DNA of 15,907 bases. Origin: Escherichia coli (GTDB lineage: Bacteria; Pseudomonadota; Gammaproteobacteria; Enterobacterales; Enterobacteriaceae). The position numbers were made by a program, and so were the translations under genes. The DNA lies in the NCBI RefSeq assembly GCF_003334335.1, contig NZ_QOWQ01000058.1; one strand, written 5' to 3'. This document shows positions 11,475 through 14,594 of the stretch, in pieces; the first letter of the stretch is position 1; each line of letters opens with the position of its first letter. Below the pieces are notes generated by a model. That model was not told the DNA's origin. It did no database searches and saw only the letters and a list, made by a program, of their open reading frames with translations.

Positions 11475-13136
11475 TTATATGAAAAAAACCGCATATTCTT
11501 TCTTTTTCGGTTCCGGGTTAAGGGACATCAGGGAGACCGCATTGAACAGCGCCATCAGCGGGTCAATTTTTCCCCGTCCACTGGTCTGTTTGGTGATAAG
11601 AATGGCGTTACCTTTAGGCTCCACCCGGGCATTGCCGACACACCAGGCCATCAGGGGCTGGTCACCATGCACCAGCACCCCTTCAGCCAGTTTGCGCTCG
11701 GTGGTTTTAATGGCCCCGCCCAGTTTCCAGCCCTGGCTTATCCCCACCACAATTCCGTCGGGGATCCCGGCTTCCGCCAGTGAATCCAGAATCTGCCCCA
11801 CCCCTGACGGGTCAATACCGATATGGTCCAGTAACTCAGCCTCATGAATACGACGCACATACTCCGCCACTTCCGCCGTGTCATCCCCGACACGCCGGAC
11901 AATGGTCATATCTCCACAGGCAACAAGATCCTGAAACCGGGACGCCTCGCTCTTCCGTCGGACCACCGCGGTTTCATGCGCCCAGGCATGGCCCCAGCCC
12001 AGCCATTCGCGGGTCTCCCGGTCACGCCCAATCACATACATCCCCAGCAGATCATCCAGCCCTCCGCCGTCAATCCCCACCGTCACCACATCAGCACGAC
12101 GCAGGATATCGTCCAGGCTGATACAACGGCCCTGCTCTTCCCAGAAATCAGCCCCCGCCCAGCGGTCAGAGCGCAGGGCAAGACCAATTTCCACATTGGC
12201 GTGTTTTGACATGAACCCCCGGAATGTCTCTTCACCGGCTTCCCGGGCTTTACGGTACTCCCGGTACAGAAAGGCCTCATCCACTGAATAGCCGAGATTC
12301 GGATTGACCATGGCGAGGTTTTCCATCAGCAGGTGAGCCCCGCTTTCCACCATTTCAGGAGGGTGTTCAAATATCACCGGCAGAAAGTGCGGATCATGAA
12401 TTTTGCCGTCACGCACATCCCGGGCGTACTGCAGTTTCTGTCTGAACACCCCGGCGGGCGGTTCATTCGACTGGGTGGTCGTATACACCACAAACCCTTC
12501 CGGGCGGGAGGCAAGGCCGCCTATGGCTTCACGTAACATGTCCTCCGCCTTGCACTGCTTGCCAAACAGCCACAACTCATCAATCAGCGTACCCACGGAC
12601 TTGATACCGGACACCGTATTCGGATCGGCTGCCACCACCTTCAGGGTGGTGTCTGTCACCCTGTGGGTGATGGTCCGGATATGGGTCTGTACCTGGCAGA
12701 GGTCATCCAGATCATCGTCACGTCGTACCATATCCCGGGCAGGGTTGAAGGCGTTGGCCGCCACCTCCACAGTCGGGGCCAGAATCGTGTAACCCGCCGC
12801 CTGCCGCCAGTTCAGTAACAGCGCCGTCATCATGATCCCCGCGGCCAGCGTGGACTTCGAGTTTTTCTTGGGGATAAGGATAAAAACTTCCTTGATATGG
12901 CGTACACCGGTCTGCGCATCGTAGGAGCCAAACAGGGCCGCCACCAGGTCAAACACCCACGGTGCACAGGACTCCCCGAACGTAGGGCTACCAGGTGCAT
13001 CCACAATCCGCAGTTGTTTAAAAATCGCCAGGGCATGTGCGGCCTCGTCCGGATAAATCGGATCCGGAATAATCGACAGCCCCTTTTTCAGGCGCTCAGC
13101 CCAGTCCGGGCAGGCTGTGCTCCATACAGGTATCAT
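11475..13136 (-). CDS. terminase large subunit (Terminase_1 / HK97 gp2-like)
   Basis: 553-aa ORF whose start overlaps the terS stop (ATGA). A deviant Walker A (ILIPKKNSKST) follows in the N-terminal ATPase part, and acidic nuclease-type motifs lie in the C-terminal half (VGIDGGGLDDL..., IGIDPSG). Confidence 0.9.
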   Translation of the reverse strand: MIPVWSTACPDWAERLKKGLSIIPDPIYPDEAAHALAIFKQLRIVDAPGSPTFGESCAPWVFDLVAALFGSYDAQTGVRHIKEVFILIPKKNSKSTLAAGIMMTALLLNWRQAAGYTILAPTVEVAANAFNPARDMVRRDDDLDDLCQVQTHIRTITHRVTDTTLKVVAADPNTVSGIKSVGTLIDELWLFGKQCKAEDMLREAIGGLASRPEGFVVYTTTQSNEPPAGVFRQKLQYARDVRDGKIHDPHFLPVIFEHPPEMVESGAHLLMENLAMVNPNLGYSVDEAFLYREYRKAREAGEETFRGFMSKHANVEIGLALRSDRWAGADFWEEQGRCISLDDILRRADVVTVGIDGGGLDDLLGMYVIGRDRETREWLGWGHAWAHETAVVRRKSEASRFQDLVACGDMTIVRRVGDDTAEVAEYVRRIHEAELLDHIGIDPSGVGQILDSLAEAGIPDGIVVGISQGWKLGGAIKTTERKLAEGVLVHGDQPLMAWCVGNARVEPKGNAILITKQTSGRGKIDPLMALFNAVSLMSLNPEPKKKEYAVFFI

Positions 13137-13696
13137 CCGTTGCCCTCATTATCGTTATTCACCACCAGTCGGGGTGGCGGTGGCACCGCAAAACGGTTAG
13201 CCGCTTTTTTCGCGGCATCACCTTTTGCCGATTTTTTCCCGGTATCCCCTTTTTTATGGTGCGTGAACTGCGCCAGACGCCAGGCCGCATCCAGTGCCAG
13301 TTTCGGATCAATGCAGAGGTTTTCCACCAGGATCCGCCCCATGGCTTTCACCGGATCGGGAAGACCATCCTCCATATATTCAATACCAGGAGACATCACC
13401 GCGGACGGTGGCATCTCCGGATTGTTTTCGTCCGGCTGTGGTATTGCAGCCGCCTCACGACGACGGGGTTTATCCTCCTGCTCTGATTTTTTCTGCCGGT
13501 AAACAGGAACCTCATCCACCTCCACCGTCTCGCATTGTTTACGGGCTATAAACGCAAGCACCTCCGGATCTTTTGCCAGCTGCGAGCCTTTAACCCTGGC
13601 GGTCTTCGCCGAATAACCGGCGGCAATGGCTGACGCTGTTTTGTTTTTCCCGGACATGAGCGCCAGCGCAAATTTTCGTTTTTGCGTTGTCAGCAC
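13133..13696 (-). CDS. terminase small subunit (Terminase_2-type N-terminal HTH)
   Basis: 187-aa ORF with a GTG start after GGAGGAGG. The N-terminus KRKFALALMSGKNKTASAIAAGYSAKTARVKGSQLAKDPEV matches the ...F...Y....N...AA..AGYS.KTA...GS.L pattern of Terminase_2 small subunits. It lies immediately upstream of terL. Confidence 0.85.
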   Translation of the reverse strand: MLTTQKRKFALALMSGKNKTASAIAAGYSAKTARVKGSQLAKDPEVLAFIARKQCETVEVDEVPVYRQKKSEQEDKPRRREAAAIPQPDENNPEMPPSAVMSPGIEYMEDGLPDPVKAMGRILVENLCIDPKLALDAAWRLAQFTHHKKGDTGKKSAKGDAAKKAANRFAVPPPPRLVVNNDNEGNG

Positions 13697-13770
13697 AGCC
13701 TCCTCCCGGGTCCAGAACGCACTCAGCCGGGTATGGTTCAGCCCATTTTTCCCGGCGTCTCATGCCGCAA

Positions 13771-13894
13771 ATGTTAACTGCTGCCTGGTTAACATTTTCT
13801 GAAAAAGCCAGTTAACATTTTTTCCGCACAACAAACTGAATAATAAAGATAAAAACCGCAAAAATGCCCGGGCAGCCAGTTAACATGTTAACTG
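13771..13894. promoter_or_regulatory. array of (CA)GTTAACAT sites in the HNH-terS intergenic region; probable terminase recognition (cosB-like) region
   Basis: ATGTTAACTG lies at 13771-13780 and GGTTAACAT at 13787-13795; these two form an inverted pair. GCCAGTTAACAT lies at 13807-13818. GCCAGTTAACATGTTAACTG at 13875-13894 contains a perfect 18-bp palindrome (13877-13894). An A/T-rich tract at 13831-13865 separates the site groups. Confidence 0.45.
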
Positions 13895-13986
13895 CCCTGA
13901 AACGGGAATTTTTTCTCTGCGTGAGAGGGGGCGCGGTGTCCAAAGCGATCGTTTTTTACGCCGGATGATACCCCCCCCGGGTTGGG

Positions 13987-14352
13987 TTACAGTCCGATGA
14001 TGTCGTCCTCTCTGCCACTACCTCCGGACACCTCCGGCAGCGTCGGGTCCGGCATACCACTCGCCGCTTCACGAGCAGACTTTTGTCGATGGCATTCGGC
14101 ACAGAGCGTCCAGAGATTCGTCTCCTCATTACCACCACCGAACTGAAGTGCAATTCGGTGATCGAGTTCACTGTCACAGAGGTCAACCACACGACCACAG
14201 ATACAGCACTGCCCGGCGTCCCTCAGCCAGATATGACGCTTGAGGGAAACACGTGCACTGCCACTGACACGACGCTGCTCCCCCTTCAGAATATTCACCC
14301 GTCGGGTATTCAGTGTTTTGATTCTGCTCTGGAGTGTACGAAGCTCAGCCAT
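13987..14352 (-). CDS. HNH endonuclease (terminase-associated, HK97 gp74-like position)
   Basis: 121-aa ORF with C.IC....-DH...-N-...C..CH (CCICGRVVDLCDSELDHRIALQFGGGNEETNLWTLCAECHRQK), i.e. an HNH/zinc-finger core. It lies just upstream of the intergenic region and terS, as in HNH-dependent cos phages. Confidence 0.9.
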   Translation of the reverse strand: MAELRTLQSRIKTLNTRRVNILKGEQRRVSGSARVSLKRHIWLRDAGQCCICGRVVDLCDSELDHRIALQFGGGNEETNLWTLCAECHRQKSAREAASGMPDPTLPEVSGGSGREDDIIGL

Positions 14353-14393
14353 GTAAAATCCCCGTCATATGGCAATCAGTAAAGGAAATAAAT

Positions 14394-14594
14394 ATGTCAT
14401 CGAAAAACCGGACCCGCAGAACCACAACCCGCAATATCCGTTTCCCCAATCACATAATTGAACAGATCAACATCGCCCTTGAGCATAAAGGGTCCGGTAA
14501 CTTTTCAGCGTGGGTTATTGAAGCCTGCAGGAGAAGGCTGGCAACAGATGCAACGCATCTGCGCCCGGCCAGCATGAAAAATAACGAGAAATGA
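14394..14594 (+). CDS. YlcI/YnfO-like small ribbon-helix-helix protein (DUF3950-type as I recall)
   Basis: ATG at 14394 is preceded by AAAGGAAATAAAT. The 66-aa product is MSSKNRTRRTTTRNIRFPNHIIEQINIALEHKGSGNFSAWVIEACRRRL.... It has a strand-helix-helix pattern like Arc/CopG and closely resembles my recollection of E. coli prophage YnfO/YlcI. It is the only convincing plus-strand gene. Confidence 0.75.
   Translation: MSSKNRTRRTTTRNIRFPNHIIEQINIALEHKGSGNFSAWVIEACRRRLATDATHLRPASMKNNEK

Follow-up and report, generated by a model that had tools for sequence, protein, structure and literature searches.

Why does a 290-bp gap between an HNH endonuclease gene and terS, the gene for the small terminase, carry a cluster of GTTAAC repeats, and is this gap the place where the phage DNA is cut for packaging? 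The gap lies in a 15,907-bp stretch of Escherichia coli DNA (contig NZ_QOWQ01000058.1), which is referred to in its full length as the window. Judged by homology to a near-identical phage with mapped ends, the gap is the packaging (cos) site of an E. coli prophage. The repeats are most likely docking sites for the small terminase, TerS. Positions relative to the cut are given as +n, where +n corresponds to window position 13926-n, and the minus strand of the window is the gene strand.

Genes surrounding the gap

The gene order on the minus strand is HNH, the 290-bp gap, terS, terL, a protease-capsid fusion and the portal, and a DUF3950 gene is divergent from these. The two flanking genes are the ones named in the original prediction, HNH and TerS, and both are supported by Pfam. 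The genes closest to the gap, and the part of the gap adjoining terS, are as follows.

14394-14594, plus strand: DUF3950 (YlcI/YnfO, RHH-like) gene, adjoining HNH
13987..14352, minus strand: HNH endonuclease gene (Pfam HNH, 31.1 bits against a cut-off of 21.4; labelled HNH endonuclease in BP-4795)
13697..13768, minus strand: leader before terS, less conserved and ending in the terS ribosome-binding site GGAGGAGG (13699-13706)
13133..13696, minus strand: terS, small terminase, with a GTG start (Pfam Terminase_2, PF03592, 36 bits against a cut-off of 26.1)
11475..13136, minus strand: terL, large terminase, ATPase and nuclease (Pfam TerL_ATPase and TerL_nuclease)

The HNH gene has the same position as gp74 of HK97, directly upstream of cos. 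According to Pfam, the downstream head genes encode a fusion of Peptidase_S78 and Phage_capsid and a Phage_portal protein. Its gene content places the locus in the HNH-dependent HK97-type cos group.

The mechanically called open reading frame of the DUF3950 gene, 14334-14594 on the plus strand with a GTG start and 86 amino acids, is too long. In relatives the protein starts with MSSKNR, corresponding to the ATG at 14394 and a product of 66 amino acids. The corrected start leaves just 41 bp to the divergent HNH start at 14352.

The HNH-terS region is 94-99.6% identical to that of the long-tailed Stx phages BP-4795, 2851, 1717, YYZ-2008 and Lys8385Vzw, and the same HNH-cos-terS-terL order is found in the Lys8385Vzw/BP-4795 group (Marienburgvirus). 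We found the 290-bp gap at 2999 places in 1277 of 5426 complete E. coli genomes, almost all of them chromosomal and with at most 7 copies per genome. It belongs to long-tailed Stx1/Stx2 phages, the movers of Shiga-toxin genes. Loci encoding relatives of TerS were gathered from genomes, viral contigs and individual protein look-ups, the intermediate relatives coming from the protein look-ups.

Within the leader, an alignment of 18 sequences shows lower conservation except for the ribosome-binding site and the motif CTGAGTG. The annotation of Lys8385Vzw places the terS start 45 nt upstream. We rejected this start, as MLTxQKRKF is the family-conserved N-terminus and GGAGGAGG precedes the GTG. An Rfam scan of 13600-14100 gave no match at E <= 1.

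Cut site and cohesive ends

The ends of phage Lys8385Vzw, whose TerS is 95% identical to that of the window, were determined with PhageTerm (PMC7946995); they are 3' cohesive, with the sequence CGCCCCCCCT, and lie where the record ends. Direct end-mapping in the E. coli group comes from this one relative only. The record ends with GGACAC followed by CGCCCCCCCT and begins with CTCACGCAGAGAAAAAATTCCCGTTTCAGGGCAGTTAACATGTTAACTGG. This junction aligns base for base with the minus strand of the window, which reads GGACAC, then CGCGCCCCCT and, after the cut, CTCACGCAGAG, i.e. 13926-13935 followed by 13925. Because of this base-for-base alignment, the cohesive 10-mer is placed as follows.

13926..13935, minus strand: cut site (cosN equivalent), 10-nt cohesive sequence CGCGCCCCCT on the gene strand, by homology to the mapped ends of Lys8385Vzw

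The cohesive sequences of the two phages, CGCCCCCCCT and CGCGCCCCCT, differ at one base. By homology, then, the cut site of the window is 13926-13935, and the mature left end would begin at 13925 and run downward, with a 3' overhang. That the mapped ends of Lys8385Vzw fall at the homologous position bears out the proposal that the gap between HNH and terS is cos.

Two unrelated GenBank records agree on the position of cos. Both ends of the record of Burkholderia phage Bcep176 carry the 10-mer CGCACGTTCC, which immediately precedes CTCACGCGCAGAAAA and is at the homologous position, and the record of Acinetobacter phage fEg-Aba01 begins with CGCACGCACAAAAAAAATTCCC, at the homologous +1.

A G/C-rich block, GAGAGGGGGCGCGGTGTCC, had been singled out from the sequence as similar to cosN of lambda. 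The block does hold the cut site, although it lies at 13923-13941 and not at 13922-13940. Its likeness to the lambda site is limited to composition; the ends are, by homology, of the 10-nt 3' type known from HK97 and SfV and not of the 12-nt 5' type.

The cohesive 10-mer is polymorphic among near-identical phages (loci L001 and L091-L107), where it reads CGCGCCCCCT, CGCCCCCCCT, CGCCCCCCGT, CGCGCCCCGT or CGCGCCCCCC. Therefore, co-resident prophages in one genome may carry cohesive ends that are non-complementary.

A conserved core around the cut

The sequences on both sides of the cut form a core with two parts.

13936..13978, minus strand: upstream half of the cos core, with a G8 run, CGATCGC, and GGACAC just before the cut
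13904..13925, minus strand: left-end core CTCACGCAGAGAAAAAATTCCC, +1 to +22, with an A6 tract at +12 to +17

The G8 run, correctly noted beforehand as a C8 run at 13971-13978, lies at -46 to -53, and a GATC is found at 13947-13950 within CGATCGC. This GATC is kept in most Enterobacterales relatives. Relatives were searched for the core by a Hamming scan. The core, consisting of the G run, CGATCGC and GGACACCGCGCCCCCT before the cut and CTCACGCAGAGAAAAAATTCC after it, is conserved at the DNA level in more than 60 loci with TerS proteins that are only ~30-50% identical. A 21-nt probe for the left end (+1 to +21) had 0-5 mismatches in most Enterobacterales relatives; distant relatives differ more. 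The core is, in our reading, probably what the conserved TerL/HNH machinery acts on.

The GTTAAC repeat array

The original prediction held that GTTAAC hexamers occur in the gap far above chance, and our counts agree. The window has 7 copies against a mean of 1.86 in shuffled sequences, and 5 of the 7 lie in the gap, within ~120 bp (13773, 13788, 13811, 13879 and 13887). The 229 bp that separate the cut site from terS hold 5 copies of the heptamer TGTTAAC, compared to a single copy in the rest of the window (15,679 bp). Exact copies of the decamer CAGTTAACAT occur at 13771-80(-), 13809-18(+), 13877-86(+) and 13885-94(-). Allowing up to one mismatch returned the same four matches only. In 200 shuffled sequences the mean was 0.62, and the number was always below four.

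A repeat search confirmed that 13877-13894 is a perfect 18-bp palindrome, CAGTTAACA/TGTTAACTG. The five hexamers, the four decamers and this palindrome all fall within 122 bp. It also returned a 16-nt family, AGCCAGTTAACATTTT, with three copies at 13783, 13806 and 13874, and two copies of ATGTTAACTGC. The longer sequence GCCAGTTAACAT is repeated at 13807 and 13875, just as first reported. One site, described from the sequence as a 9/10 match at 13787-13795, needs adjustment: it reads TGGTTAACAT at 13786-13795 and matches 8/10 of the decamer, while its GTTAACAT is exact. From the cut towards terS, the array consists of the following elements.

13877..13894, no strand assigned: proximal site pair, palindrome CAGTTAACATGTTAACTG, 18 bp, +32 to +49
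13829..13865, minus strand: A/T-rich spacer with T/A tracts each 9-10 bp and an IHF-like core, ATTCAGTTTGTTG, at 13829-13841
13806..13821, no strand assigned: distal site S3, AGCCAGTTAACATTTT; on the gene strand AAAATGTTAACTGGCT, ~+108 to +117
13783..13798, no strand assigned: distal site S4, GCCTGGTTAACATTTT; on the gene strand AAAATGTTAACCAGGC, ~+131 to +140
13769..13781, no strand assigned: distal site S5, AAATGTTAACTGC; on the gene strand GCAGTTAACATTT, ~+146 to +155

Site S5 has the opposite orientation to S3 and S4. When 18 distinct GTTAAC-type gaps were aligned, neither the motif cores nor TTATTCAnnTTGTT varied, unlike their flanks; the invariant positions include ATGTTAAC in S3 as well as sites S4 and S5. 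The sequence TTATTCAnnTTGTT is unchanged even between divergent GTTAAC-type loci, and the other long-gap types again show ATTCA...GTT. The IHF-like core (+85 to +97) agrees with WATCARNNNNTTR at 12 of 13 positions, a match that is weak when taken alone, as the window holds 18 such matches where 13.3 are expected.

The layout is kept across relatives. In brief, a proximal palindrome is followed by a T-tract spacer with an IHF-like core and then by a distal cluster, the whole spanning +32 to +155. Even in lineages with other motifs, sites recur at the same positions, +32, ~+107, ~+131 and ~+148. This conserved spacing fits the resemblance to cosB proposed at the outset, in which a spacer, IHF-like and probably bent, is flanked by repeats, and so does the co-variation of the motif with the recognition helix of TerS that is described below. 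By analogy, the array is cosB-like, and as such it is an expected kind of element.

The paper on Lys8385Vzw gives the cohesive-end sequence only, without the GTTAAC array, the conserved core or the co-variation with TerS (PMC7946995). A full-text literature search with the cohesive-end and palindrome sequences gave, among the matches listed, no paper with the repeat sequences and no phage-related match.

TerS and its co-variation with the repeats

AlphaFold predicts a four-helix HTH domain in residues 1-56 of TerS (helices 4-14, 19-25, 33-41 and 44-56), with pLDDT >92 for residues 1-50, followed by a disordered linker and a C-terminal helical region. In the predicted structure, the recognition helix is 33-41, and residues 32, 35 and 38 are on it or capping it. 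The linker (residues ~60-107, window 13375-13520) is hypervariable in both length and sequence and is predicted to be disordered, with pLDDT <50.

The best fold match found with Foldseek is the DNA-binding domain of SF6 G1P (4ZC3, TM 0.84, rmsd 1.6 A), and profile matches were obtained to 4ZC3, 3ZQP and 2CMP. The structural matches are the small terminases of SF6, PaP3 and NV1, and not Nu1; the sole Pfam match is Terminase_2. TerS is an SPP1/SF6-type HTH protein and not a homologue of Nu1.

Comparing the HTH region of TerS with the repeat motif found at the same locus gave these classes.

KTARVKGSQ (Thr32/Val35), with GTTAAC: the window, BP-4795, L086 and L173
KTAKVKGSQ, with GTTAAC: Pantoea locus L021
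KSARCKGSQ (Ser32/Cys35), with GTTTAT(ACCC)/GTTTAC: L085, L087 and L177
KTARVKGWQ (Trp38), with AAAAGTTACAC (GTTACAC): L089 and L175; two satellite lineages

Within each class all copies of the motif change jointly with TerS residues 32, 35 and 38. In the Ser32/Cys35 relatives, for example, the palindrome becomes TATAAACATGTTTATA. For one TerS, P0066, with the HTH sequence GKSARCKGSQ, GTTTAT sites were predicted from the protein alone and then confirmed at its locus, L171, which has the palindrome TATAAACATGTTTATA at +32 plus three copies of TGTTTATACCC. This TerS is 52% identical to that of the window, and in its N-terminal domain it is no closer to one E. coli class than to the other. When only unique HTH/site combinations are counted, Thr32 is found with xTTAAx in 14 of 15, the exception being the Trp38 class with GTTACA, and Ser32 with xTAAAC in 12 of 13.

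We regard this co-variation as strong circumstantial support, though not as proof, for TerS being the reader of the repeats. It should be noted that the sites and the N-terminal coding region of TerS are adjacent and heritable as one recombination module, so that the co-variation is not a phylogenetically independent proof. Taken with the HTH domain, it suggests that TerS binds the GTTAAC repeats.

Displacement of terS

In most of the distant relatives, terS has its start at +40, where it reads ATG TTA ACn and follows GT(A/T)AAC. A single GTAAACATGTTAAC element straddles the terS start codon in these short-gap relatives. The ATG in the palindrome of the window (13884-13886, +40 to +42) is homologous to this short-gap start (loci L005-L020 and L110-L137), and the real terS of the window, beginning GTG CTG ACA, starts at +230. 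Because the palindrome ATG is positionally homologous to the short-gap start codon, we conclude from the alignments that the terS start is displaced by ~190 bp in the E. coli Stx-phage lineages. By the same comparison, terS in the lineage of the window has moved ~190 bp downstream, the element was kept as a perfect palindrome and three copies were added. A DNA site may, in turn, be what constrains the conserved N-terminus of TerS, Met-Leu-Thr (ATG TTA ACn).

A multi-site array is not essential to the TerS family, since many relatives, with terS at +40, manage with one GTAAACATGTTAAC. At the distant loci of fEg-Aba01 (L183 1-75), L159, L163 and L164, 2-3 copies of AAGTTAA(A/C) are found between the left-end core and terS. 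Judging from the sequences compared, the ancestor of the whole TerS family seems already to have had a GTTAA-type repeat immediately inside the left end.

Small open reading frames starting at the ATGs of the repeats were considered and rejected. The palindrome ATG opens MLTGCPGIFAVFIFIIQFVVRKKC followed by a stop, and in relatives these frames have 24, 24, 14 and 5 codons and encode peptides that are not conserved.

Alternative explanations for the repeats

The repeats might be operators of DUF3950, or of another phage or host regulator, that control terS and the late operon and have no role in packaging. The DUF3950 gene adjoins HNH, palindromes and inverted pairs are typical of operators, and the sole promoter-like match in the gap, on the antisense strand and with 9/12 positions, is formed by the repeat motifs themselves. 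The DUF3950 protein, however, is 94% identical between the window, with GTTAAC, and locus L088, with GTTTAT, and just 70% identical between the window and BP-4795, which have the same motif. Its sequence does not track the motif, and we therefore also rejected DUF3950 as a specificity partner. Neither the genes called upstream of the L171 array nor the satellite-like islands gave a DUF3950 match. Scanning the gap for a sigma-70 promoter in gene orientation and for a terminator found neither. Transcription of lambdoid late genes normally comes by read-through from pR', which we also count against operators. The RHH operator that the original prediction offered as its alternative does not agree with the identities across and within motif classes, and we consider an operator function of whatever regulator highly unlikely. 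The displacement of terS leads to another account, according to which the repeats are dead leftovers, partial duplicates of the ancestral terS 5' end (ATG TTA ACn, Met-Leu-Thr) that arose from an insertion of ~190 bp. Short-gap terS starts with ATGTTAAC at exactly +40, where the palindrome ATG sits, and the third copy, ATGTTAACCAGGCAGCAGTTAACATTTGCGGCA, by eye loosely resembles the 5' coding sequence of terS. Leftovers would hardly be expected to behave as this array does: it persists at the same positions in lineages with TerS down to ~50% identical, all copies in a locus switch together to a new motif, and the motif cores are invariant, whereas the flanks are variable. In addition, the start-codon half-site, once non-coding, matches the other half perfectly (GTAAAC-AT-GTTAAC compared to ATAAAC-AT-GTTTAT or GTTAAC-AT-GTTAAC), and the small open reading frames mentioned above are not conserved. 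We find an origin as mere debris very improbable.

It is also conceivable that TerS binds the repeats mainly for autorepression, of translation or transcription, and that packaging recognition resides only in the core with its A-tract, as in HK97. Overlap of the element with the terS ribosome-binding site and start codon in the short-gap relatives would suit such a role. Moreover, a site of 15 bp that includes an A-tract (+15 to +29) is sufficient for TerS of HK97, and a comparable A6 is present here at +12 to +17. However, the sites of the window are 75-200 bp away from the real terS ribosome-binding site and start, on the upstream side, a distance too large for occlusion. The TerS of the window has an SF6-type HTH, unlike gp1 of HK97. 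In the satellite-like islands, the shared cut-site core is accompanied by a TerS and repeats that are particular to the island, a combination that is sensible if the repeats set packaging specificity. On balance, we think it unlikely that autorepression is the main function of the repeats. By analogy with HK97, the conserved A-tract core could be the main TerS site.

Comparison with known packaging systems

The cosB of lambda is organized as R3-I1-R2-R1 between cosN and Nu1, with TerS-site repeats of ~16 bp, an IHF-type bend, and terS ~200 bp from the cut. The gap in the window likewise has ~16-bp repeats between the cut and terS, and the proximal site is parted from the distal sites by a putative IHF-type element. 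Unlike lambda, the window encodes a TerS with a Terminase_2/SF6-type HTH in place of the winged helix of Nu1, and an HNH partner is present. The overhangs are, by homology, 10-nt 3' as opposed to 12-nt 5', and there is no similarity to the lambda R sites.

In HK97, cos has a 10-nt 3' overhang and TerS recognises one 15-bp site, +15 to +29, using a channel and an arginine clamp, with no HTH array. The window resembles HK97 in having HNH upstream of cos, a probable 10-nt 3' overhang, an A/T tract no more than 30 bp past the cut, and terS on the left end. In HK97, a G9 run precedes the cut by 43-51 nt (L179 682-690), compared to the G8 run of the window at -46 to -53. A G8-G9 run ~45-50 nt upstream of the cut is common to this prophage family and HK97, in surroundings that are not alignable. 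HK97 differs from the window in that its terS is at +50 without a repeat cluster, and the core sequences of the two cannot be aligned.

The TerS of the window belongs to the same family as G1P of SPP1 and SF6 (Terminase_2) and has the same N-terminal fold (4ZC3 and 2CMP, TM 0.81-0.84). G1P binds repeated boxes in intrinsically bent DNA. Whereas the window has a cos system, packaging in SPP1 and SF6 is headful (pac), without an HNH partner or defined cohesive ends.

Satellite-like islands

An island of ~8.5 kb was found in E. coli GCA_012987925.1 (L180 3446-11944), and others at L089/L090, L108/L109 and L175/L176. The first of these is inserted between a sulfatase-family gene (DUF3413/Sulfatase) and a response-regulator gene beside the ccm operon. 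It encodes an integrase, an AAA_25 primase/helicase and a 307-aa protein with a capsid fold, and it has the same cos core as well as two copies of AAAAGTTACAC. Its TerS is 46% identical to that of the window and has the HTH sequence KTARVKGWQ. Genes for TerL, HNH and the portal are absent, and because of this the island has the appearance of a cos-type phage satellite that brings its own TerS. A related remnant, beside an Ag43-type autotransporter, has AlpA, ~7 GTTACAC-type sites and TerS. If the islands are indeed satellites, they could divert the TerL and HNH of a helper to their own DNA. This strategy would be distinct from carrying the helper cos, from Rpp and from that of the cf-PICIs.

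Proposed mechanism and implications

We consider it likely that the gap is the cos of a BP-4795-type lambdoid siphophage, with a family-wide cut-site core and a lineage-specific, cosB-like array that is bound by TerS. In the core, composed of the G run, GATC, GGACAC, CGCGCCCCCT and CTCACGCAGAGAAAAAATTCC, TerL and the adjacent HNH protein would introduce staggered nicks, giving 10-nt 3' overhangs. The array would be on the packaged left end, with the ATGTTAAC palindromic pair at +32 to +49, a spacer of ~55 bp and three sites at +108 to +155. We suggest that the spacer is intrinsically bent and probably bound by IHF, and that the N-terminal HTH domains of an oligomeric TerS bind the proximal and distal sites, which the bend would join. 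The resulting nucleoprotein complex would set TerL and HNH on the cut site, and packaging would start towards terS. In this scheme we infer TerS as the binder, the bending of the spacer by IHF and the order of events.

More tentatively, we speculate that the locus reflects a modular, swappable code, in which a shared core for TerL and HNH is combined with private hexamers read by the TerS helix, and which satellites exploit. This is a possibility that we hold less probable than not. If true, Thr32/Val35 would read GTTAAC, Ser32/Cys35 GTTTAT and Trp38 GTTACAC, so that the code would lie in 2-3 residues of the recognition helix. The substitutions T32S/V35C in TerS would then shift its preference from GTTAAC to GTTTATACCC arrays. 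For finding further loci by a metagenome scan, we suggest the sequence GGACACCGCNCCCCNNCTCA.

The cohesive end has been published for a near-identical phage, and the general picture of cos packaging is unchanged by our analysis. The cut site and the probable recognition sites tell which DNA can be packaged by these phages, and by any satellite or plasmid that carries the sites. The pairing of repeats with TerS offers a testable residue-to-base code for a small terminase, and the motif class makes it easy to assign co-resident prophages to groups of packaging specificity.
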